This document shows, in pieces, positions 11,549 through 63,344 of a stretch of 64,000 nucleotides of DNA. The DNA lies in sequence record MK327929.1, one strand, 5' to 3'. The stretch is from Escherichia phage D5505. Numbering within the stretch: position 1 is the first letter of the stretch; each line of letters starts with the position of its first letter. The translations under genes and the position numbers were made by a program. The notes below the pieces were generated by a model that had not been told where the DNA came from, searched no databases, and worked only from the letters and a program-made list of their open reading frames with translations.

Positions 11549-12151
11549 TTATAGATTAAATCCTTCAAAATCAAGAGTATAGATAGTGTATGTTGAATAC
11601 TTTTTATACTCGTATCTATCCGCAATTCTAAATACACTTCCAGCTGGTATCATTACTTCTTGTTCATCTGAAACTAATTCCATATTACGATAGCGATGGC
11701 TATCCGGAAACTTAAAACTCGGACTATATTCTTTACAACGTAAAGCTTTTATAGCATACTCCTGGAAATTAAACACCATAGGAGCTTTGAATTCAAAAAT
11801 AACTTGTGTGTTGTATTCTAATCCAGAAGCAAAATGTAGAGCTATATTTTTATCATATGAAGCTGATACTACTTTATCAAATGTAATAATATCAATTCCT
11901 TGATTTAACACCTGTTTAGTCTCAACTGGAACACCTCTCCAAAGAGGTTTATCGTTTGGAACCAAACGAGATTTGACTATTTCATTTAACCAAGAATGAT
12001 CGTCTGGTTTATTAGTAATACAATGAATTAAAAGTTCAATTTCAGATAAATTAAATCCTTCGGAAAGTAATTCTTCACGAATAGAAGCACGCACAGATGC
12101 ATCCATTGATTTGATTTTAAAATCTTTTAATTGCATTGCTGAATATTTCAT
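11549..12151 (-). CDS. modA: ADP-ribosyltransferase ModA
   Basis: 200-aa ORF, same length as T4 ModA, syntenic with modB. Confidence 0.8.
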   Translation of the reverse strand: MKYSAMQLKDFKIKSMDASVRASIREELLSEGFNLSEIELLIHCITNKPDDHSWLNEIVKSRLVPNDKPLWRGVPVETKQVLNQGIDIITFDKVVSASYDKNIALHFASGLEYNTQVIFEFKAPMVFNFQEYAIKALRCKEYSPSFKFPDSHRYRNMELVSDEQEVMIPAGSVFRIADRYEYKKYSTYTIYTLDFEGFNL

Positions 12152-12771
12152 TCAACTACCTCAATATCATACACTTTAAATGTTCCAAATGAATCGTGTA
12201 ATTTTTCTTTTGAAATAGAAGTTATTTTATACTTTCCAATTGGAATCATCCATTCTTGTTCACGTACAATCATCATTAAGTTATCAGTACGTTCTGAATC
12301 TAATCCATCAGTATCTTCATATGTATACTTAAATTCAGTATTAGGAGAAGAAAGTATAATATCGCTGATATGGTCAGAATAATTAAAAGCTTTATCAGTT
12401 TTTAAGCGAAATATTATTTCAGTGAAATACTCAACATAAGAAAAACCACATGCTGTGTGCAAACTAGTAGTAAATGAATCTACTCTGTTCGTTGAAAACA
12501 CTTCTCCAACTTGTAAATCTTTAATGAGTTCTTTTGTCGATTTTGATATACCACGATATAGCTGATAAGGCGATTTAGTTAAATGCTTTTTAACGATTTT
12601 ATTCAACTGCCGATGAAGAGCTTCATTCTTTTTGGCTTCCATACACTGCCAAAGAACTGACTGTTCAAAGTCAGTAAATTTTTCACAGACCTTTTTGTAC
12701 ATATCATATTGAAAATCGACACTTTCAGCTTTTATAGATAACTGTTCAACATCTGCGAGATTAATAATCAT
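12148..12771 (-). CDS. modB: ADP-ribosyltransferase ModB (start reassigned to second ATG, 207 aa)
   Basis: ATGGAGGCTATCATG: GGAGG SD serves the second ATG, giving 207 aa as in T4 ModB; first ATG sits at the transcript start. Confidence 0.75.
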   Translation of the reverse strand: MIINLADVEQLSIKAESVDFQYDMYKKVCEKFTDFEQSVLWQCMEAKKNEALHRQLNKIVKKHLTKSPYQLYRGISKSTKELIKDLQVGEVFSTNRVDSFTTSLHTACGFSYVEYFTEIIFRLKTDKAFNYSDHISDIILSSPNTEFKYTYEDTDGLDSERTDNLMMIVREQEWMIPIGKYKITSISKEKLHDSFGTFKVYDIEVVE

Positions 12772-14980: not shown

Positions 14981-15217
14981 TTAACCACCTATTTCTGTAG
15001 GCGTAAACATTGCAGCATTCTTAGTTTTCCAAGTTGTTGCATCGGAAACTACATCAGAATAAGCTGCTTTTTCTGACGGAAAGATTTGATAATGAGAATC
15101 TGCAATACGGTGTTCATTTGAATATACATCAAATGCTACAGAAACTTCCATACCTTTAACTTCTTTGCCTTCACCTGCTGGATGAGTAAAGGTCTTGATG
15201 TTAACGAAACCACCCAT
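14981..15217 (-). CDS. soc: small outer capsid protein Soc
   Basis: 78-aa ORF recognisable as Soc (VNIKTF...AHYQxFPSEKAAYS); late promoter upstream. Confidence 0.85.
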   Translation of the reverse strand: MGGFVNIKTFTHPAGEGKEVKGMEVSVAFDVYSNEHRIADSHYQIFPSEKAAYSDVVSDATTWKTKNAAMFTPTEIGG

Positions 15218-15248
15218 AATAAACTCCTTTATTGTTTAATTACAGGTG

Positions 15249-15256
15249 TATTTATA
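15249..15256 (-). promoter_or_regulatory. T4 late promoter TATAAATA (gp55-dependent) for soc
   Basis: exact TATAAATA on minus strand about 32 nt upstream of soc ATG, AAGGAG SD in between. Confidence 0.6.
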
Positions 15257-15426
15257 TCAGTCTTCAATGAAAACTTGTGCCAGGAATTCGTGTTCATCTT
15301 GAATTTGTTTATATAAAGCCATTACAGCATTTATATTAGAGCTATCTACTTTAAGTTGATAGGCATACCACTCGTATAAATTAATTAAAGCTTTTTGTCG
15401 TCTAATAAATTCTTCTTTGGATATTT

Positions 15427-15627
15427 TCATTTTGAATGCTCTATAATTAATTTTAAGGCTTCTTTACTGACAAAAATTTCATCAAGACCTTCTTCTACAC
15501 CCCAATCAACTACACGAAGCTGATTAGATAAGAGCTCGTATGTGAGCTCCTTGTCATAATTTTTAAATAGCTGGTCAATACGTTTCTTGTGGGCTTTCTT
15601 AAGCTGGCGTTTATTTAAACGAGCCAT
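15427..15627 (-). CDS. hypothetical small protein
   Basis: 66-aa basic ORF between 56 and soc; this is where T4 carries segF. Confidence 0.45.
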   Translation of the reverse strand: MARLNKRQLKKAHKKRIDQLFKNYDKELTYELLSNQLRVVDWGVEEGLDEIFVSKEALKLIIEHSK

Positions 15628-16145
15628 TAATAACCTCGGTCTTGACGAGCGAAGTTTTCAGCATTTTTCAGATAATAAAGTTTAAAGATTTCTTCAGCCG
15701 TAAGACCGAGGCCTTGGAACATGTTCAGAACGAAATGAAGAATATCAATCATTTCGAATTTAATTTCCAACTGGTCTTGTGGAGACAAATCAGTAATCAG
15801 AGTTTCACGTCGTTCACCATGTTGAGCTTTCCAAGGCTTCCATACAGCAGATGCATCTTTTTCACCATTGCTCATACCACCAAGAGAAGTCAATAGTTCG
15901 CGGAATTCATCATCAATATAATCTTTCTGATTACGCAGCCAATCAACAACTTCACCCGCAGTAGCCAAATCATCAGGATGACGGTTATATTCAGGTTTAT
16001 CTTTAGCTAAACGAACCTGCAGAGATTTCTGCATATCAAGCATAACTTGCAACGGGTCTTTTTCATCACCGAGAATATCCCAGTATTCATTTTGAGCTTT
16101 ATCAGCGCCTTCAATCAGTTGTGAACATTCATTAAAGTATGCCAT
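15627..16145 (-). CDS. 56: dCTPase/dUTPase gp56 (start at internal ATG, 171 aa)
   Basis: sequence from MAYFNECSQLIEG recognisable as T4 gp56; ORF-track N-terminal extension rejected; AGGAAA SD before ATG 16143-16145. Confidence 0.85.
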   Translation of the reverse strand: MAYFNECSQLIEGADKAQNEYWDILGDEKDPLQVMLDMQKSLQVRLAKDKPEYNRHPDDLATAGEVVDWLRNQKDYIDDEFRELLTSLGGMSNGEKDASAVWKPWKAQHGERRETLITDLSPQDQLEIKFEMIDILHFVLNMFQGLGLTAEEIFKLYYLKNAENFARQDRGY

Positions 16146-39172: not shown

Positions 39173-39496
39173 TTAGTCTTCTATGATATCTCTATCATAT
39201 CCAAGTGAAATGAGAGTTTCTTTGAAGTGTTTAATGTTCTTTTGTCTAGAATCATTAATGAAAATGACTGGATAACGAATGTTAAGAGATGTGAATCCAG
39301 CGCGTTTAGCAAGAGATACAATCAGCGGACGATCATACTCAATCTTACCGTTATTTGTAAGAACTTTATAGAAAGTAAAAGGAGCATTGAGCTCCTTTAG
39401 AAGTTTTGTAACTGATTGACATCCAGGACAACGACCTACTTCTTCGGGGATGCCATAGATTTCAATCTTATTCTTTAAGTTCGAGTTTTGTTCCAC
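39173..39496 (-). CDS. nrdH: NrdH-like glutaredoxin (candidate GTG start, about 107 aa)
   Basis: CPGC redox motif after KIEIYG; no ATG near the conserved N-terminus, but a GTG with AAGGA SD 10 nt upstream is in frame; the ORF-track start 39625 overlaps the upstream gene; local coordinates uncertain. Confidence 0.5.
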   Translation of the reverse strand: MEQNSNLKNKIEIYGIPEEVGRCPGCQSVTKLLKELNAPFTFYKVLTNNGKIEYDRPLIVSLAKRAGFTSLNIRYPVIFINDSRQKNIKHFKETLISLGYDRDIIED

Positions 39497-39779
39497 GAGA
39501 AATAATTCCTTGATAAGCCCAGTATGGCGGGTTAACAGAATCCTCACCAGAGTTTTCTTCAGGAAAATAAACCTGGATAACAAATCCAGATGCATCAAAG
39601 GTAAAATAAACCGTAGGCAGTTCACCTAACAATTCGGCACGAGCATTAATTTCTTCGAGATCTCGTTCACGTCCAGCCCAAAAACTAGGATTTAGACTAC
39701 ATTCGTAAAAATAATAGTCATTACCGAACATGTCAAAACCCTTCCAACTCTCTACCACATACCGCTCAAAACTAATCAT
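39468..39779 (-). CDS. hypothetical protein
   Basis: 103-aa ORF with ATG start. Confidence 0.45.
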   Translation of the reverse strand: MISFERYVVESWKGFDMFGNDYYFYECSLNPSFWAGRERDLEEINARAELLGELPTVYFTFDASGFVIQVYFPEENSGEDSVNPPYWAYQGIISRGTKLELKE

Positions 39780-39781
39780 AA

Positions 39782-40021
39782 TTAAGCCTTTTTATCAAGA
39801 ACAGAATTCAGCTTGTTAGTAATTTTATCCAGACGCTCGTTAAACTCACTAGAAGATAGTCCTTTTTCTGGAGAAATCAAACTAATCACGAAAAATATAG
39901 CAATAAAAGGAATAAGGAAAATAGCTCCAACTGCCATAAACAAAAAGAATGTTACGGTTGTAAGAAAATCAGCTAAACCTTTACGAAATTTATACATATT
40001 TACCCTTAATTGATTAACCAA
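39782..40021 (-). CDS. small membrane protein
   Basis: 79-aa ORF with central hydrophobic stretch. Confidence 0.45.
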   Translation of the reverse strand: MVNQLRVNMYKFRKGLADFLTTVTFFLFMAVGAIFLIPFIAIFFVISLISPEKGLSSSEFNERLDKITNKLNSVLDKKA

Positions 40022-50433: not shown

Positions 50434-51420
50434 TTATTTCAGAAGAGTAACCTCAGCGATTTCTTGCCAACCGTTTTTGTCGGTCATAATAAAGTCAGCA
50501 AGATAAAGTGCAGTACGCAGTGAAACATTGCGTAAACGGTTAACATTGACTTTCATCCATGATAATGCTTTATAAGTTTCTTCATCAGAAAGACCGCGCT
50601 TTTGCATCATGTCAGTTGAAAGAATAACATCTTCAACCCTGACCATAATTTCTTCATTAGTGTGAACACCCAAATCCAAATAAACCGAGCGGGACACTAA
50701 TGCTTGTAAATGTGGAGCAAGTTTAGTACCACGGTCTAATTCGCGGTCAATGTCAACGTTTGTGATAAAAACAATCGTTCCTTTAAATTCAAACTCACGC
50801 TCAATGCCTTTTTCTTCTAAGTAAGAAGATGCGGTGCTCCAGCAGACTTTACGGGTCTCTCCAGTGTCCAGAGCAGCTTTCAGAAGATTAAGAATGTCCA
50901 TATCAGAGAAAACATCCACATCATCAATCAAAAGGACAGAATTCTCTTCACGATTATTCCAAAGTTGTTCATAAAGACCGATACCGGAGATTTTACCGTT
51001 AATGCTTTTATATTCAATGTATCCATTATCATTTGCTTTATTCAAAGCTTTATCTAAAGAATACGTTTTACCAATACCCGCCGCACCAGAGATAATTAAT
51101 GAACGAATGTTTCCGTTAATAATACCATTCGTCATCATTCCCATAACATTAAATCTTTTATTAATGCGGGTTTTCATATCTTCATATGATTCTTTAACTT
51201 CTTCAACTTTTACACCATCATATGAAATGTCTGATTTGTAAACCCAAACACCGCGACGCTTACCGTCAATTTCAACAAAAACTTTACCATCTCCTTGTGC
51301 ATCTACCGGAGCATTATCTGGGAACCATTCACCTAAGAGCTCAAAAGTTCCAGAGATTTCTTTACCGAAGTAGATACCCTTATTGATAGTTACAGTTTTC
51401 ATTTTATTCTCCAATCTCAC
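50434..51420 (-). CDS. P-loop ATPase (AAA+-like) of unknown function
   Basis: 328-aa ORF; Walker A GAAGIGKT, Walker B LLIDDVD. Confidence 0.6.
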   Translation of the reverse strand: MRLENKMKTVTINKGIYFGKEISGTFELLGEWFPDNAPVDAQGDGKVFVEIDGKRRGVWVYKSDISYDGVKVEEVKESYEDMKTRINKRFNVMGMMTNGIINGNIRSLIISGAAGIGKTYSLDKALNKANDNGYIEYKSINGKISGIGLYEQLWNNREENSVLLIDDVDVFSDMDILNLLKAALDTGETRKVCWSTASSYLEEKGIEREFEFKGTIVFITNVDIDRELDRGTKLAPHLQALVSRSVYLDLGVHTNEEIMVRVEDVILSTDMMQKRGLSDEETYKALSWMKVNVNRLRNVSLRTALYLADFIMTDKNGWQEIAEVTLLK

Positions 51421-51471
51421 ATTCGTTTTGATAGGGTAATAGTATCACACTACTACCCTTCTGTAAACAAT

Positions 51472-51735
51472 TTATTTTAACGTTCGCCAAATTTTTACTG
51501 CTTCACGGCGAGATACTTCTACAGCTCCAAGTTCTACAGCTTTTTGGCGTCGGCGAGCGTGTAAGTCATAATGTTTAATGCGTTTATCTTGAAACCAAGA
51601 ACGTTTCATTCCTATTGCTTCTGCCATTTCATGAAGCTCTTCAATATCTCCATCAGTGAACATATGACAATTTTTAGTTGGATGACCGCGAAGTTTCCAT
51701 CCATGATTCATTAAAACATCTACGTAAACTGTCAT
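51472..51735 (-). CDS. hypothetical protein
   Basis: 87-aa ORF. Confidence 0.45.
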   Translation of the reverse strand: MTVYVDVLMNHGWKLRGHPTKNCHMFTDGDIEELHEMAEAIGMKRSWFQDKRIKHYDLHARRRQKAVELGAVEVSRREAVKIWRTLK

Positions 51736-51881
51736 TGATTCTTCTCCAAATAAGTTTCGATAATTTTCTGAGCGAGATAAACTGCATTATCTTCAGTTGC
51801 ATCTTCTAAGAAACTTTCAAAACACTCTGAAATTTCTTCTGTGTCAATCAACTTTTTTACTTCAATTGGTGTAATTTTCAT
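51732..51881 (-). CDS. hypothetical small protein (start reassigned to ATG 51879-51881, about 49 aa)
   Basis: ORF-track start 51950 lies inside promoter 51919-51948. Confidence 0.35.
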   Translation of the reverse strand: MKITPIEVKKLIDTEEISECFESFLEDATEDNAVYLAQKIIETYLEKNQ

Positions 51882-51918
51882 TTTGTTTTTCCGTTTAAGT
51901 GTTTGTTTTGATAGTTGT

Positions 51919-55959: not shown

Positions 55960-56249
55960 TCAGTCTCCAATTTAATGTTCATAATTCTAGCGTATGATTG
56001 TGCCATCTCCGCGCCTCGCTCTATACATTCAAAATCGGAAGAGCACGGGTCATTTTTATAAGTCGTTCGCATAAAACTATAGAACTGTTCAGATGATTCT
56101 ACGCTTTTGTTTTCAAAAAGCATATAAACGTGTCTAATACCAGATTCCATAAATTTATCAAAATGAGGATCGACATTCGCTTCAATTGGTGGAGATAAAG
56201 CAAACGCTAATCCTAGCATGGCAAATAGTGCCGTTGCTTTTAAGGCCAT
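55956..56249 (-). CDS. rI: lysis inhibition regulator RI
   Basis: 97-aa ORF recognisable as T4 RI; N-terminal signal-anchor then periplasmic domain. Confidence 0.85.
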   Translation of the reverse strand: MALKATALFAMLGLAFALSPPIEANVDPHFDKFMESGIRHVYMLFENKSVESSEQFYSFMRTTYKNDPCSSDFECIERGAEMAQSYARIMNIKLETE

Positions 56250-56261
56250 AAAGGCCTCCTA

Positions 56262-56474
56262 TCATTTTTGTCCTGTATTTACTTTATGCCGATGCACGGC
56301 CTTAACTTTATCAAGGTATTTTTCAAAATTTCGCAATCTAGTATAGTCTGCCGGAGATTGGTTGAGTGATACTTCTCGACGCAAAGCTGAAATGATATTT
56401 CCAACTTCCCTACGAATTTCATCTAATTGAAGAACAGTAAGATTGCGAAGTTGCTTTTCAGTTAATTGTAGCAT
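56262..56474 (-). CDS. hypothetical small protein (rI.1 position)
   Basis: 70-aa ORF. Confidence 0.45.
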
Positions 56475-56516
56475 ATATACCCCTTTAGTTAGATAAACCT
56501 ATTTATAACTTTTGCA

Positions 56517-57098
56517 CTAACCGAGCTTTTTAGTTAATTCATTCCAATGTTTTCTACACAAAGAAACATAAATTTCATCACCAATACAGATTTGATTACC
56601 TTCTTTAACTGGTGTTCCATCTTCCATTAATCGAGCTGTCATAATAGCTTTTTTACCACAATGACAAACTGCCTTTAGTTCAATAAGTTTATCTGCAATC
56701 GCCAAAAGTTCTTTAGAACCTTCAAATAATTTTCCAGCGAAATCAGTCCTTAGCCCATAAGCCATAACAGGAACATTATATGTATCAACAATTCGACTTA
56801 ATTGATGCACCTGTTCAGTTTTTAAAAACTGAGCTTCATCTACAAATACACAATGAATATCTTTTTGTGCTTCAGCCCATTTATAGAACTCAAAAATATC
56901 CATATCATCCGTAATAATATTCGCTTCCTGCTTAATTCCAATGCGAGAAACGACTTCACAGACAGAATCGCGAGTATCAATAGCAGGCTTAAGAACTAAT
57001 ACACCCATTCCGCGTTCTTTATAATTATGTGCAGCAGTCAAAAGAGAAGCAGATTTTCCAGCATTCATTGCTGCGTAAGTAAAAATTAAACTCGCCAT
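56517..57098 (-). CDS. tk: thymidine kinase
   Basis: 193-aa ORF, same length as T4 Tk; P-loop AAMNAGKS and C-terminal zinc ligands. Confidence 0.88.
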   Translation of the reverse strand: MASLIFTYAAMNAGKSASLLTAAHNYKERGMGVLVLKPAIDTRDSVCEVVSRIGIKQEANIITDDMDIFEFYKWAEAQKDIHCVFVDEAQFLKTEQVHQLSRIVDTYNVPVMAYGLRTDFAGKLFEGSKELLAIADKLIELKAVCHCGKKAIMTARLMEDGTPVKEGNQICIGDEIYVSLCRKHWNELTKKLG

Positions 57099-57107
57099 AT
57101 CACCTTC

Positions 57108-57293
57108 TTAAAGCATATTCACATAAGCTATTAATTCGTTTTCTTTCTTATCAAACCGATCAGCAAATTCTTCTTGCTGATCGGGAGATAGCGGGCCGTA
57201 TTCATCATAAAAGGTGTTTGCTTCTGTATGCTCATCTAGAAGTTCATGGATAAGCTCAAACAATTTATCTTTTTGTTCTTTACTCAGACTCAT
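57108..57293 (-). CDS. hypothetical small acidic protein (tk.1 position)
   Basis: 61-aa ORF. Confidence 0.45.
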   Translation of the reverse strand: MSLSKEQKDKLFELIHELLDEHTEANTFYDEYGPLSPDQQEEFADRFDKKENELIAYVNML

Positions 57294-57459
57294 ATATTAA
57301 TTTCCAGGAGTTTTAAAATAATTCGCTTTTGCTTAAATATTTCCATAGTTAAATGACCAGTATCTTTTTGACCGATTCCAATGGCAAAACCTTTATTGAC
57401 AGCGAGTTCAATTAAATTATCAAGCTCACGTAACACTTCATACTGTAACTCAAAACTAT

Positions 57460-57672
57460 TCATTTCGGTTTACCTTCTTTAACGAAATCTGGATAAGGAT
57501 AAAATCCCGAATAAAATCCTTCACCTTTATGATTGATGCATCCTTTATTAGAACAATAGCACCAATAATCGAAATCACAAGCCATTTCATCGTTGCATAA
57601 AGCAAAAACAACTGGCCATTTACACTTTTCACAATGGGCATTTTTAAGAATACTAGTTTGGCTCATAACCAT
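57460..57672 (-). CDS. hypothetical Cys-rich small protein (tk.2 position)
   Basis: 70-aa ORF with multiple Cys pairs; preferred over overlapping 57456..57641. Confidence 0.4.
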   Translation of the reverse strand: MVMSQTSILKNAHCEKCKWPVVFALCNDEMACDFDYWCYCSNKGCINHKGEGFYSGFYPYPDFVKEGKPK

Positions 57673-57890
57673 GTAACCTTTAAGCAGTATTCTTCTACAT
57701 GCTGTTTACGACCTTTCTTATCAATAAAGGTATATTCAACGAATGTTCCAATGTAGTCTTTATCTACATCATGCGGACTATTAATTGGACATTTAGTACG
57801 GCAAATGCGTTCCCATTGACGAATAATTTCCACTTTGTTTTTAGGATCAAACGGATGCGGGTAATGTACTTTCATAATAATGGTTCCCAA
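57663..57890 (-). CDS. hypothetical small protein (tk.3 position)
   Basis: 75-aa ORF. Confidence 0.45.
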   Translation of the reverse strand: MGTIIMKVHYPHPFDPKNKVEIIRQWERICRTKCPINSPHDVDKDYIGTFVEYTFIDKKGRKQHVEEYCLKVTWL

Positions 57891-58339
57891 TCAACAATCA
57901 CAATTTCTAATTTAGAGGAATATGTATCTAAAATCCCCTCAATAATATCCCAGTTCCCTTTACCTATGCCTGCACCAATCCTAGGCATATAGATTGTAGG
58001 TTTAATCAGTTTATTTTCACCAAACTCATTTAATTCTAACATACAATTCATTAAAGCAGAGTACTCAAAATTCGGTCCAGGTTCGAACTGTGTGTAAAGA
58101 TTAAAGCAATAAGCTTTATGAGTTCTGAAATATTTTTCGTAAACCGAATAAGAACCGAGTTTAGTTTCATCTCCCCATTCAGTTTGCAATTTGTCGGCTT
58201 CCAAAATCTTAGGAAAAGCTTTAGCTAATTGACCAGCTACTCCTGATCCCATCGTGTGGAAACAGTTACAACCATGAGCGATATTTTTACCTTCAGCGAA
58301 AAGGGCGACAATATCGCCCTTGATATATTTTACAATCAT
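57872..58339 (-). CDS. macro-domain protein (ADP-ribose binding/processing fold), tk.4 position
   Basis: 155-aa ORF; IKGDIV...NIAHGCNC...MGSGVAGQL and IGAGIGKGNWDIIEGIL match macro-domain signature regions. Confidence 0.55.
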   Translation of the reverse strand: MIVKYIKGDIVALFAEGKNIAHGCNCFHTMGSGVAGQLAKAFPKILEADKLQTEWGDETKLGSYSVYEKYFRTHKAYCFNLYTQFEPGPNFEYSALMNCMLELNEFGENKLIKPTIYMPRIGAGIGKGNWDIIEGILDTYSSKLEIVIVDWEPLL

Positions 58340-58677
58340 CTAGTACTCAATCCTCGATTATAAGAATCTACTAAACGGTCAACCATTGAATGACAAGCGG
58401 CTTTATCTTTCTCCTCCGCAACTGAACATTCTAAAGTATTCCACTTTTTAGCATATCGTTTTAACAATGTATCATTTTTATATCTGCTTGATTTATCTCT
58501 TTCTCCGTCTTTGTATGCATATATTAATTTCTGCGCAAATTCAGCTTGGCATGCTTTATTTTTCCCACAATAATCCGCGGCAGTACGGTTTACATACTCT
58601 CTAATTTCAGTATATGATGTATCTGCTAACACAGAAAATGAAATTAATCCTATACATAAAACCAAAATTTTAGTCAT
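58336..58677 (-). CDS. hypothetical protein with signal-peptide-like N-terminus (T4 vs position)
   Basis: 113-aa ORF; a hydrophobic N-terminus is unexpected for a valyl-tRNA-synthetase modifier, so identity is open. Confidence 0.45.
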   Translation of the reverse strand: MTKILVLCIGLISFSVLADTSYTEIREYVNRTAADYCGKNKACQAEFAQKLIYAYKDGERDKSSRYKNDTLLKRYAKKWNTLECSVAEEKDKAACHSMVDRLVDSYNRGLSTR

Positions 58678-59215
58678 TTACTATTTCCAAAAGTTTATTA
58701 TTTTTAAGGTAATTAGCCTTTTCTAGGACTTCAGAAGCATATTTAGAACCTGCTTTAACATTCCATCCCGAATTATAAGAGGATATCGCCTTTCTTATAT
58801 CGCCCTTATGTATATTTAACCAATAAGAAAGTTCAATGTACGCCCAGGAAGCTGAATTGGACCGTTTATTCAACATTCTTTTTATTTCAGCATCGGTCAT
58901 ATTATAACCAAGTTCCTTAACTCTTGCTCGCATAGTAGGCAAATAATTTTGGAACATTCCATAGGCATGATGCTTTGGTTTAGATTTTAAATTAACTCCG
59001 GCAGAGCTTTCTTGCCACAAAATAGCAGCCATTATATGACCCAATCCGCTCTTATGGATGTTTTTGTGTGTTTTATATTTTCCATCCTTAGAAAATTGTT
59101 CCCCGAATTGATACGCGTAACGCATGTTATCGAGTTGGACATTACTGAAAGTGTGCTCGGAGCTATGTGCCATCATTGAAATGGCCAATAGACCAGCGAG
59201 TAGTGCTTTTCTCAT
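58670..59215 (-). CDS. secreted lytic transglycosylase-like protein (SLT domain)
   Basis: 181-aa ORF; signal peptide; WQESS, YGMFQ and SYNSG motifs in SLT order. Confidence 0.6.
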   Translation of the reverse strand: MRKALLAGLLAISMMAHSSEHTFSNVQLDNMRYAYQFGEQFSKDGKYKTHKNIHKSGLGHIMAAILWQESSAGVNLKSKPKHHAYGMFQNYLPTMRARVKELGYNMTDAEIKRMLNKRSNSASWAYIELSYWLNIHKGDIRKAISSYNSGWNVKAGSKYASEVLEKANYLKNNKLLEIVND

Positions 59216-59222
59216 GCTTACC

Positions 59223-59684
59223 TCATTGAGTTTTAATTACTGCTTTAGAAGCCTTTCCTGGTAAACGACGACTGTTAATAATTGCCATCCTACATTGAAG
59301 TGACGGGTCTTTGAACTTTGCATTAGGTTTACAAACTGTAAATCCAAGCCAAAGATTTCCATCTGTGATTTCTAAACGTCCAGGACGGTATTCAACCCCA
59401 TCAATAAAATCCTCATCAATGTCAGGACGCGGAGGCATACTCAGGAATTCATTAACTTCTAAAACATGGTCTTTTATTTTATGGAATAATTCAAAAACAT
59501 ATGTCTCATCAATCTCCCGTTGAATTGCACGATCAAGAAGATGTTGAGAATATTTTAGATGAAACGATGAGACTCCTGCTGCTTTTGATGCCTCACGAAT
59601 CTCATTGTTAATTTGACGAAACTCCGACTCAAAGTGACGACGAAGCTTATTTCGACGGATAAAAACTTCTGTATTGATAGTCAT
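59223..59684 (-). CDS. regB: RegB site-specific endoribonuclease
   Basis: 153-aa ORF recognisable as T4 RegB. Confidence 0.85.
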   Translation of the reverse strand: MTINTEVFIRRNKLRRHFESEFRQINNEIREASKAAGVSSFHLKYSQHLLDRAIQREIDETYVFELFHKIKDHVLEVNEFLSMPPRPDIDEDFIDGVEYRPGRLEITDGNLWLGFTVCKPNAKFKDPSLQCRMAIINSRRLPGKASKAVIKTQ

Positions 59685-59743
59685 GTTATTCTCCTCTTAA
59701 CTGATAGAAAAATTATACCACAGTCAAGAGGAAAAGTAAACAG

Positions 59744-60064
59744 TTATTCTTTAAATCTAATCAATTTATTCATAGACTTTGAAACTTCTGCACGAACCTC
59801 ATGTAAGTTTTTAAGCTGTTCAAGACGTTGCTCATAGTAAGCAATTTCATCTTCTTCGAGGCAGTCCTGTGAATCTTCTTTAAGATAACGTGCATAGTCC
59901 TGGAAAGCTTTACGGACTACTTCCTGGAAATCATCAAGACTTTGAATTTTCTTAGAAGCAATAGATACACGACGAGGGGCAGTATAATACTCATAACCAA
60001 ACCCTGCGCTTAATTGAGCCATTAATATTTTTCCTCTGGTTGGAACACAGCACGACAAGCCCAC
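59744..60064 (-). CDS. hypothetical protein
   Basis: 106-aa ORF. Confidence 0.45.
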
Positions 60065-60324
60065 ATACTAGCTTCTTTGAGTTTCGTTTTAGCAATAGTT
60101 AACTGATCTAGGCTTTCAGCATAATTCTTTGCGAATTCGTAGTCTTCACAATTATCTAGTGCTTCCCAGAATTCATCATATAAAGCATCAAAGATAAGTC
60201 CTAAACGAACTTCAGCGTCTTTGATAGCATTCACTTTATCGATTTTCTCTTCAGTGTGCGGCTTATAACCTTTAATATCTTCAATCATATTTGACTTCCT
60301 CGCCCGTTCCCAAATCATATTCAA
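60022..60324 (-). CDS. hypothetical protein
   Basis: 100-aa ORF. Confidence 0.45.
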
Positions 60325-60502
60325 CTAAACGAATAGGTTCATGAATGCCATATCCCTGAACAGAAATTTCTGTCGTAGGATAAATTCCACTAATATCACC
60401 CATATTCCACGCTTCATTAAATTGCTGTTCGCCTGAATTACTAAACCATTCTGCGAAAGCATTTAACACATCTTTAGAACCTTCAATAATTATCTTTGCC
60501 AT
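60281..60502 (-). CDS. hypothetical small protein
   Basis: 73-aa ORF. Confidence 0.4.
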   Translation of the reverse strand: MAKIIIEGSKDVLNAFAEWFSNSGEQQFNEAWNMGDISGIYPTTEISVQGYGIHEPIRLVEYDLGTGEEVKYD

Positions 60503-60864
60503 TACAAGCTCTCAGTAAAGGTACGAGCGATAACGTCGCGCTGCTGTTCCGGAGTCAGAGAGTTAAAGCGAACTGCATAACCGGATACACGGATGGTCAG
60601 CTGCGGATATTTTTCCGGATGCTTAACTGCATCTTCCAGAGTTTCACGACGCAGAACGTTAACGTTCAGGTGTTGACCACCTTCAATTTTAACTGTAGGC
60701 TGTGGTTCAATTTCAATTTCACGGGTGTGCAAACCGTAGAAAATTTCTGGGTCTACAAAAGAGTCCTCTTTAAAGGTTTTAGAAACAATAATTCGTGCTT
60801 GAATACCATCTTCAAAATAAATAGTACCTTTATGCGTGCCTTCAAGAATTTGATATGCTTTCAT
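60502..60864 (-). CDS. autonomous glycyl radical cofactor (GrcA/YfiD-like)
   Basis: 120-aa ORF; C-terminal about 60 residues (EGGQHLNVN...RVSGYAVRF...TESL) match E. coli GrcA as I recall it; visibly GC-richer DNA than surroundings. Confidence 0.8.
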
Positions 60865-60870
60865 ATAACC

Positions 60871-61251
60871 TCAATTAGAAAATAAATTTATCCAAGACTG
60901 TTCTTTAATTAAAAATGGCTCAGAATCATATGCCATTAAACTTTGAGTAATTAATCCTTTAAATGGTCCATCAATAAATTCCATGGTAAAATATGGAATT
61001 TTATTCATTAATCTTGCATTAGGAGCAGTGCACAAAACTCTGCATCCTTTGAATACACCTTTTTGTAATTTGTATTGCTTGGGATAAAATTCGCTCAAGA
61101 CGTTGTTATTTGCCAAAATTTCAAAATGATTCACCAATTTATTTTTAATAGTTTTTGGCGAAAAATAAAGATATTCGAAAAGTTGCGTATCTGTCATCAT
61201 TGCATTCCAATTACGAAAAACTGCGGACGAGTAATACCGCCAATGCAGCAT
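60871..61251 (-). CDS. hypothetical protein
   Basis: 126-aa ORF. Confidence 0.45.
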   Translation of the reverse strand: MLHWRYYSSAVFRNWNAMMTDTQLFEYLYFSPKTIKNKLVNHFEILANNNVLSEFYPKQYKLQKGVFKGCRVLCTAPNARLMNKIPYFTMEFIDGPFKGLITQSLMAYDSEPFLIKEQSWINLFSN

Positions 61252-61784
61252 TTACTATTACAGCAGTGTTGCACAGTTTCAATATGAATATCGTAAATTT
61301 TATCCATATCAGGAGATTTGACAGGCTCATCAATTATATACAAAATTCGCGAAAGCGATAAACCTCTGAACTTGCTTCCTTTATTACCAATAAAACTGCG
61401 CACAGAATCAGTAAATAAACGAAAACGTATATCATCATTAGAATAACGAGAAAATTCTTTTTTAATGTGGCCTGCAGAAATTTTAGCGTAAGCTGAAGTA
61501 TTAGAAAGAACAATAACTGTTCCACCGTCATACAGCCAATTAGCAGCAAAGTTAGTCACAGCAGTTGATTTACCGGATTGACGTCCACCGTCTAGTCGAA
61601 GTGTGCAATACTGCTTAAGTAAGTCTTCAAATGGCGGGATATATTCGTTTTTACAAATTTCTTCTACTCTAGCATCAGAATGGTGTGTAAAAGCATTCAT
61701 CAGGGATAGATAAGGACCAGTTAAAAATGTTCTCATTTTGTTATCTCTAGGTTTGGGCCATTCCATGGCGCATGAATTGTCCAT
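61197..61784 (-). CDS. P-loop protein of unknown function
   Basis: 195-aa ORF with GGRQSGKST Walker A-like motif. Confidence 0.5.
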   Translation of the reverse strand: MDNSCAMEWPKPRDNKMRTFLTGPYLSLMNAFTHHSDARVEEICKNEYIPPFEDLLKQYCTLRLDGGRQSGKSTAVTNFAANWLYDGGTVIVLSNTSAYAKISAGHIKKEFSRYSNDDIRFRLFTDSVRSFIGNKGSKFRGLSLSRILYIIDEPVKSPDMDKIYDIHIETVQHCCNSKCCIGGITRPQFFVIGMQ

Positions 61785-61881
61785 TTCTGTATTTACCCAT
61801 TACCGCACTTGGGCTCGACCTTATTACAGGTTGGCGGGAATCCCTCACAGAATCATGAGGTCCAGGTTATTCCCATGTTAT

Positions 61882-62298
61882 TTAAATGTAAATATTTTTG
61901 CCGTAATACTTATACCAGTGTGGCTTCATTAAAATTTTTTCATCGAGTCGTTGTTGACTCAACTTAATAGCTGATTTGCATGGATTATAATCATTTTTCC
62001 ATTCTACTGGAATATCGCTGATGTCAGGAACTTCAGTATCTTTTATACTGAACCCGCGTTTTAAGCATTCCGTTATAATGTCCGATTGACGCTTTCGCAA
62101 AAATTCTAACTTATCGTAAAAGAAAGTAACATGACCAGAACCTAAAATAAATTTAGAAGATATTTTAAAATCTTTAGCGCGCTTACCGTTTGCCACATGC
62201 TTACGAACTATACCAAAAACACGCGGCAATTCACGGTATTCTGCGATTAAATGTTGATCAGCAAGTTCAGATACTAAAGTCAAATTAATACGAGTCAT
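61882..62298 (-). CDS. denV: endonuclease V (pyrimidine dimer DNA glycosylase)
   Basis: 138-aa ORF recognisable as T4 DenV. Confidence 0.88.
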
Positions 62299-62357
62299 TT
62301 TATCCCTCCAAGTAACTGTGAATATACTATCACAATTCTAGGAGAAAGTAAATAGCT

Positions 62358-62888
<531 letters not shown>

Positions 62889-63344
62889 TTAAAAGAGGCT
62901 GTTCATTATTCGGTAAAGTGAAGGACCCATCACATATTGCCACTGAGTACGAGGAATAAGAGCAAAAGCATCCATCTCTGGAATCATAACGCCATCTTTA
63001 TTTTCAAAATAAGACTCGCAATGGCAATTTCTAAACATCTCATGCTCTACTGGAATCGTATAATAAAATAACTGTAAGTCTTTATTACTAGAATATTTAA
63101 ATACACCTAAGTCTTCTAGAAGGTCTGGATTATAATCGATAAAACCAGTCTCTTCTGAGCATTCTCTTTTTGCAGCTTCCAGTGCATTCAAATCAGAACT
63201 TTCTACACGCCCCTTTGGAATATCCCAGCGATGTGCAATCATTCCAGGTTTACGAGAACCGGTAACTCGTCCCATAAATAAATCTTTATCTTCTGTCATA
63301 AAGATAATACCAGCTGATAATGTTTTCATTTTAATTTCCTGCAT
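62889..63344 (-). CDS. nudE: Nudix hydrolase NudE
   Basis: 151-aa ORF; Nudix box around GRVESSDLNALEAAKRECSEETG. Confidence 0.8.
   Translation of the reverse strand: MQEIKMKTLSAGIIFMTEDKDLFMGRVTGSRKPGMIAHRWDIPKGRVESSDLNALEAAKRECSEETGFIDYNPDLLEDLGVFKYSSNKDLQLFYYTIPVEHEMFRNCHCESYFENKDGVMIPEMDAFALIPRTQWQYVMGPSLYRIMNSLF

Follow-up and report, generated by a model that had tools for sequence, protein, structure and literature searches.

DarT2 blocks phage DNA replication by ADP-ribosylating thymidine at N3 within TNTC motifs of ssDNA. The macrodomain proteins DarG, TARG1, SCO6735, and PhiKZ gp104 can strip DNA of DarT marks in vitro. Earlier work showed that T4 lacking both adfA and adfN (gene 30.3, a NADAR protein specific for DarTG1) is still resistant to DarTG2, and a further factor was therefore expected. 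In a preprint of November 2025, the HIDEN-SEQ method was used to grow a T4 transposon library on a DarTG2-expressing host, and tk.4 was the sole significant T4 gene, depleted on this host (bioRxiv 10.1101/2025.11.20.689424). A clean tk.4 knock-out sensitises T4 to DarTG2; the gene was renamed adfM (anti-DarT factor Macrodomain), and the authors propose, without biochemistry, that AdfM removes ADP-ribose from DNA (10.1101/2025.11.20.689424). These genetics cover T4 only and come from this single preprint. A 2026 Cell Reports paper shows that PhiKZ gp104, also named AdfM, removes ADP-ribose from DarT2-modified ssDNA in vitro.

Two further systems are close to the protein described here. SCO6735 of Streptomyces coelicolor (PDB 5e3b) is TARG1-like, cleaves thymidine-linked ADP-ribose on DNA, and protects cells against DarT (PMC9411070). 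According to its authors, Gln85 of SCO6735 occupies the position of TARG1 K84 and DarG K80, and the Lys/Asp residues are absent; the Q85A mutation abolishes dT-ADPr hydrolysis on DNA, Asn27 locks Gln85 in position, and catalysis is proposed to begin with a water held by the Val25 backbone, with a role also given to H24 (PMC9411070). K34 and K89 of SCO6735 contact DNA, and the protein has a long mobile loop (PMC9411070). The second system is aRES, a RES-domain defence that converts NAD+ to nicotinamide and ADPR-1''-phosphate (ADPR-1''P), as described in a January 2026 preprint (bioRxiv 10.64898/2026.01.28.702374). Adpp, a Poa1p-like phage macrodomain encoded in Adps–Adpp–Namat operons, dephosphorylates ADPR-1''P, after which Adps and Namat (NARP1; with Adpp, NARP1-AP) rebuild NAD+ (10.64898/2026.01.28.702374). 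The phosphatase activity is demonstrated for the Adpp of Vibrio phage Gary only (KNV71_gp137), of which phage Morian has a 94%-identical copy.

We analysed a stretch of 64,000 nucleotides of phage DNA, hereafter the window, in which an earlier note had described an ORF with macro-domain motifs at 57872–58339. Every motif quoted in that note is present, and the ORF lies in a string of co-directional genes with the following features.

58336–58677, minus strand: vs, valyl-tRNA synthetase modifier, upstream of tk.4
58336–58339, minus strand: ATGA, in which the vs stop codon overlaps the tk.4 start codon (coupled translation)
57872–58339, minus strand: tk.4 (adfM), coding sequence of a 155-aa single-domain macrodomain, TARG1/ALC1-like class with a Gln-type active site
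57872–57875, minus strand: ATGA, in which the tk.4 stop codon overlaps the tk.3 start codon

The tk.4 ORF has 155 codons with an ATG start and a TGA stop (product, in excerpts: MIVKYIKGDIVALFAEGKNIAHGCNCFHTMGSGVAGQLAKAF...PRIGAGIGKGNW...). Its GC content of 35.5% matches that of the window (34.4%), and a Shine-Dalgarno-like GAGGA lies about 13 nt upstream of the start codon. The ORF is the tk.4 orthologue, because 152 of its 155 residues (98%) are identical to those of T4 Tk.4 (NP_049723), which has the same length, and because the gene stands at the equivalent T4 position, where the T4 reference record describes tk.4 as "phosphatase; contains A1pp phosphatase motif". The two proteins differ at positions 39, 58, and 86, where the substitutions are conservative and outside every conserved column; none falls in an invariant or nearly invariant one. 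The identity of the gene was thus already known, as A1pp/macro in the T4 reference record and with the AdfM function assigned since late 2025.

The gene order tk–tk.1–tk.2–tk.3–tk.4–vs–vs.1–regB, in which tk encodes thymidine kinase, vs.1 an SLT-domain protein, and regB RegB, is identical in T4, and the strand arrangement from tk.3 to regB is also the same. The position of vs next to tk.4 is evidence of synteny only, and we claim no functional link. The product of tk.3, which is annotated at the equivalent position in T4 and in Escherichia phage FL23, matches Pfam DUF7202, and that of tk.2 matches Pfam Phage_zn_bind ('Phage zinc binding domain'). The two small genes 3' of tk.4 (57460–57875, minus strand), of no known function, are coupled to it in translation; a polar effect on tk.3/tk.2 needs excluding wherever tk.4 insertion phenotypes are read.

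The phage is another Tequatrovirus than T4. Around tk.4, a 1.4-kb stretch matches Escherichia phages FL23 and FL44 at 100% identity and several hundred further Tequatrovirus genomes at about 95%. The whole window aligns with FL23, the nearest complete genome, in reverse orientation at 94–98% identity (about 95–97% overall), so the window derives from a close relative of FL23 and not from FL23 itself. The alignment has gaps at window positions 14989–15663, 39472–39797, 51414–51908, and 61798–62369, which indicate mosaic exchange and accessory-gene indels among close Tequatroviruses; the tk.4 region is 100% identical.

From the gene position we infer early expression of tk.4. A promoter and terminator scan of 56000–61500 was uninformative, with 21 promoter-like sites against 20.2 expected, and the best minus-strand site (59740–59712, upstream of regB) is a consensus match only. 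A terminator-like hairpin, AAGGGCGACAATATCGCCCTT, with a T-rich tail lies at 58301–58321 on the plus strand, antisense within the 5' part of tk.4; since five such hairpins occur in 5.5 kb against 2.8 expected, it may be a chance occurrence. In T2, the Tk.4 protein is detected in the infected-cell proteome (2026 preprint 10.64898/2026.06.19.733364). RIL-seq in the same preprint reveals pairing between T2 tk.4 mRNA and ArcZ, a host sRNA, and tk.4 is mislabelled there as 'putative thymidine kinase' (10.64898/2026.06.19.733364). A search for a second macrodomain gene in the window and in the FL23 genome found none besides tk.4. A 151-aa Nudix hydrolase ORF lies 4.5 kb from tk.4 (62889–63344, minus strand) and adjoins the lysozyme gene (62358–62852). 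It occupies the position of T4 e.1/NudE.1 and is annotated 'Nudix hydrolase' in FL23, its matches to NCBIfam Nudix models are weak, and NAD/ADP-ribose-metabolite substrates are possible.

The macro-domain assignment made in the earlier note is upheld by sequence, profile, and structure. Tk.4 matches Pfam Macro PF01661 at 28.3 bits, above the curated gathering score of 22 bits, with residues 22–132 covering profile positions 2–113 of 118, and it matches PHROG 335 at E=4e-67. An AlphaFold2 model of Tk.4, built from an alignment of 91 homologues, has a pLDDT of 96.4 and a pTM of 0.91 and shows the three-layer alpha/beta macro fold with both ADP-ribose-binding glycine loops. Macrodomains of the MacroD and PARG types are structurally further from it than are TARG1, DarG, and Poa1p; a structure of the Poa1p H23A mutant also exists. 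Tk.4 belongs to the TARG1/ALC1-like class and consists of a single macrodomain.

Residue conservation was evaluated in a MAFFT alignment of 117 homologues and reference sequences, and four segments stand out.

58262–58276, minus strand: H22-G23-C24-N25-C26 motif, in which N25 is the conserved macrodomain Asn
58241–58249, minus strand: G31-S32-G33, first ADP-ribose-binding loop (GxG)
58088–58102, minus strand: N80-L81-Y82-T83-Q84, family signature, with Q84 at the position of the catalytic Lys
57968–57985, minus strand: P119-R120-I121-G122-A123-G124, diphosphate-binding loop

In the first motif, C26 is conserved in all 117 homologues, G23 and N25 in 116 each, H22 in 113, and C24 in 110. The counterpart of Tk.4 H22 is H23 in Poa1p and, judged by the H-x-x-N spacing, H24 in SCO6735. 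N80, Y82, and Q84 are invariant (117/117), and T83 is found in 114 of the 117; Q84 aligns with TARG1 K84 in the HMM alignment and with K80 of the DarG 'PTK' in the MAFFT alignment. In the diphosphate-binding loop, which aligns with TARG1 'PRIGCGLD', P119, I121, G122, and G124 are invariant, and G126 lies at the position of the TARG1 catalytic D125. Further invariant or near-invariant residues are G33, A35, D49, K60-L61-G62, and W130. These alignments show that Tk.4 has conserved ligand-binding loops and an active site of Gln type.

Tk.4 is not DarG-like in sequence. It scores 28.9 bits against the NCBIfam DarG model NF048014, whose equivalog cut-off is 250 bits and which implies a macrodomain plus a C-terminal DarT-binding domain; the 155-aa protein matches only model positions 2–146 of 338. 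Against two DarG macrodomains, Tk.4 gives 38 and 30 bits at 21–26% identity. DarG (T. aquaticus 5m31/5m3e, M. tuberculosis 5m3i) and PhiKZ gp104 have F-P-T-K-x-x-W-R-x-P-S with the catalytic Lys, whereas Tk.4 has N-L-Y-T-Q; the Lys of the F-P-T-K motif (K80 in Taq DarG) is absent from Tk.4, with Q84 there in every one of the 117 family members. The PhiKZ gp104 sequence (taken from PMC13309987) has the motif FPTKDNWRNPS and matches Mtb DarG at a phmmer E-value of 1e-24, whereas Tk.4 matches gp104 by BLASTP at a non-significant 21 bits and E=0.03. Judged by these comparisons, gp104 is a true DarG relative and Tk.4 is not, and the name 'AdfM' covers two unrelated lineages, T4 Tk.4 (Adpp/Poa1p-like, Gln-type) and PhiKZ gp104 (DarG-like, Lys-type). 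Net charge and pI do not discriminate as a proxy for DNA binding, as Tk.4 has a pI of 5.4 and the DNA-active gp104 a pI of 5.05. In addition, DarG has a C-terminal DarT-binding domain and an adjacent darT, and Tk.4 has neither: a tblastn search of the window with P. aeruginosa DarT2 (sequence from PMC13309987) found no DarT2 homologue (best E=0.8).

The remaining reference macrodomains are also distant, as human TARG1/OARD1, yeast Poa1p, and Bacteroides BT1257 (2fg1/2afc, function unknown) show 20–30% identity to Tk.4. Instead of the K84/D125 dyad of TARG1, Tk.4 has Q84 and G126 at the aligned positions, and Poa1p apparently has Ser at the Gln position (LFTS vs LYTQ, in a motif register set by eye and not the printed phmmer register).

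Bacterial members of the family, found at no fewer than 530 loci, are stand-alone proteins of about 150 aa. In 80 of these loci (L003–L082), tblastn detected no DarT2 homologue nearby (best E=2.9), and the macro genes lie beside housekeeping genes such as argC, secA, ileS, and an amino-acid ABC transporter, in lineage-specific synteny. Clustering of 701 neighbouring ORFs yielded no conserved partner gene and only this lineage-specific housekeeping synteny; one neighbour cluster spanning 16 loci was rejected as antisense artefact ORFs.

SCO6735 provides a precedent for a macrodomain of this kind. Like Tk.4, it has Gln in place of the catalytic Lys, an H-x-x-N motif, and a stand-alone build unpaired with DarT, and it matches the Tk.4 family profile at E=4e-14. 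H22-G23-x-N25 and Q84 of Tk.4 (N25 in 116 of 117 homologues) appear to reproduce the SCO6735 arrangement; the correspondence of Q84 with Gln85 is transitive, through TARG1 and the statement in the SCO6735 paper, and not from a direct alignment. The two proteins differ in that SCO6735 is distant in sequence and has K34, K89, and a longer mobile loop, whereas Tk.4 has S32 at the K34 position, by spacing from the Asn, and after Q84 an uncharged loop (QFEPGPN) that contains no Lys or Arg. The middle residue of the first GxG loop is likewise Lys in DarG (GKG).

We consider it probable that Tk.4 is a stand-alone macrodomain enzyme that would protect the phage from DarTG2 by removing ADP-ribose from thymidine in ssDNA. 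We assign this physiological role because of the genetics in the T4 orthologue, and we infer the catalytic step from the fold, from the conservation of the ligand loops, and from the Gln-type precedent of SCO6735. In the proposed mechanism, the ADP-ribose moiety would be bound in the macro cleft formed by the G31-S32-G33 and P119–G124 loops, and Q84, held by N25, would position the distal ribose. The C1''-N3 bond would then be hydrolysed by water and not by a catalytic Lys, as proposed for SCO6735, and free ADP-ribose and intact thymidine would be released. The earlier note had suggested that the phage macrodomain could reverse DarT-type ADP-ribosylation, which agrees with the T4 genetics (10.1101/2025.11.20.689424). 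Its caution that the substrate is not readable from sequence also holds, and we found no enzymology of T4 Tk.4 in the searchable literature, including assays on ADP-ribosylated DNA. Several observations speak against this explanation. The catalytic Lys is absent, and S32 stands where SCO6735, by spacing, has the DNA-contacting K34 and DarG has the Lys of GKG; the closest characterised relative, Adpp, is a small-molecule phosphatase, and none of the 80 bacterial loci adjoins DarT; Tk.4 is not DarG-like in sequence, and its similarity to the biochemically proven gp104 is non-significant.

The relationship to Adpp bears directly on the substrate. Gary Adpp is the best-scoring characterised homologue of Tk.4 (36% identity, E=1e-23), and the Adpp and Tk.4 queries retrieve the same approximately 2,700 phage records, which form one family. 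Both proteins have the single-domain build of about 155 aa and the HxCNC / D49 / KLG / NxY[T/G]Q / PxIGxG signature. They differ in that Adpp has FNVYGQY where Tk.4 has FNLYTQF and has Q23, R32, and G83 where Tk.4 has G23, S32, and T83. Adpp lies between Adps and Namat, whereas tk.4 is neither within nor next to such a NARP1 operon in the window or in FL23: tblastn of the window gave neither an Adps nor a Namat homologue (E>0.3), and in the reconstructed FL23 genome of 170,663 bp no Namat match was found at E<=1 and the best Adps match had E=0.99. The phenotypes also differ, Adpp being anti-aRES and Tk.4 anti-DarTG2.

Family members directly after Adps–x–Namat occur in one Pakpunavirus and one Saclayvirus. 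More broadly, macro genes of this family lie within or right after Adps and Namat in members of Thalassavirus, Pakpunavirus, and Saclayvirus (L083:4132-7138, L084:1629-4659, L089:972-4483, and L091:889-4459), frequently with an RNA ligase gene close by on the upstream side. Members with and without a NARP1 link are not told apart consistently by any active-site residue; Aci01-1 has G23/T83 as in T4, and Gary and Ps25 have Q23/G83. Escherichia phage Andreotti (Felixounavirus, L090:3995-4780) encodes a 261-aa member in which the macrodomain is followed by about 100 uncharacterised residues at the C-terminus; a polynucleotide kinase gene lies nearby.

This homology to Adpp is what favours the view that Tk.4 is primarily an Adpp/Poa1p-like phosphatase, which would convert ADPR-1''P, arising from RES-domain NAD+ phosphorylases (e.g., aRES) or as an RNA-repair by-product, to ADP-ribose. 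We regard this as unlikely. The phosphatase step of NARP1-AP serves a purpose only through the rebuilding of NAD+ by Adps and Namat, and the phage has neither partner in the regions searched; moreover, ADPR-1''P hydrolysis does not explain DarTG2 sensitivity, the sole known tk.4 phenotype. The processing of NAD-derived molecules, which the earlier note had also raised, is nevertheless a reasonable suggestion from homology, because the closest characterised homologue is an ADPR-1''-phosphate phosphatase. The two activities could coexist, because in both substrates C1'' of the distal ribose carries a leaving group.

The conservation of the active site bears on a further possibility, namely that binding to DarT2 or to its DNA product, rather than catalysis, is the main way in which Tk.4 neutralises the toxin. 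The catalytically dead mutants SCO6735 Q85A, DarG K80A, and TARG1 K84A inhibit DarT on DNA, SCO6735 most strongly (PMC9411070), and AdfA and AdfB are non-enzymatic DarT binders. However, the ligand-binding and active-site positions are invariant or nearly so in more than 100 homologues from phages and bacteria, most of them without a nearby DarT, and this family-wide conservation argues for selection on catalysis. In addition, Tk.4, with 155 aa, has no counterpart of the C-terminal DarT-binding domain in the 338-position DarG model. We therefore consider a non-catalytic role quite improbable.

It is very unlikely that Tk.4 degrades or sequesters another ADP-ribose derivative, for example O-acetyl-ADP-ribose or a cyclic ADPR signal of the Thoeris type. 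Homologues bear the name 'O-acetyl-ADP-ribose deacetylase' in several database sources, TARG1 has the alias OARD1, and comparative genomics argues that phage macrodomains mostly target soluble ADP-ribose derivatives. These database names, however, are automatic transfers, no experiment ties the family to O-acetyl-ADP-ribose or Thoeris substrates, and the only reported screen yielded DarTG2.

ModA and ModB are encoded in the window at the positions given in the earlier note (11549–12771), and both match the annotated modA/modB of RB14 and RB18 at 97–97.5%.

11549–12151: ModA, 200 aa
12148–12783: ModB, in which 12771 is an internal ATG

The T4 Alt/Mod enzymes modify arginine, and we know of no TARG1-class macrodomain that cleaves arginine-linked ADP-ribose. 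Macro-family genes are present in 2,757 of 50,697 phage records (about 5%) and ModA-like genes in 927, so that at least two thirds of the macro-family phage carriers are without Mod. That Tk.4 reverses or tunes the ADP-ribosylation or RNAylation of host proteins by Alt, ModA, and ModB is barely credible: both Mod enzymes are indeed in the window, and TARG1-class macrodomains can de-modify proteins, SCO6735 acting on auto-modified PARP1 (PMC9411070), but the family far outnumbers ModA in phages and is also common in bacteria, tk.4 lies about 46 kb from modA/modB, and no tk.4 phenotype is reported on a plain host (10.1101/2025.11.20.689424). Nothing found in this analysis ties Tk.4 to the phage's own ADP-ribosyltransferases, and the link to ModA and ModB implied in the earlier note is unsupported.

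As an enzyme that probably acts against DarTG2, Tk.4 is an example of the phage erasure of toxic DNA ADP-ribosylation, and tk.4 is part of a layered anti-DarTG armoury of T-even phages that comprises AdfA, AdfN (NADAR, against DarTG1), and AdfM (against DarTG2). We also put forward, tentatively and with more doubt than confidence, that the Gln-type macro family (HxCNC, D49, NxY[T/G]Q) may be promiscuous for ADP-ribose with any leaving group at C1'', in which case Tk.4 and Adpp would be the same enzyme directed against DarT2 and aRES, respectively. If this is true, about 5% of sequenced phage genomes would carry a lysine-independent eraser of DNA ADP-ribosylation, and T-even Tk.4 would be an Adpp whose partners for rebuilding NAD+ were lost or were never there. 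The remaining interest lies in how a macrodomain that is related to Adpp and lacks the lysine would counter a DNA ADP-ribosyltransferase, and in its substrate range (DNA-thymidine-ADPr or ADPR-1''P), a question that concerns a family whose carriers number thousands among phage genomes and hundreds among bacterial species.
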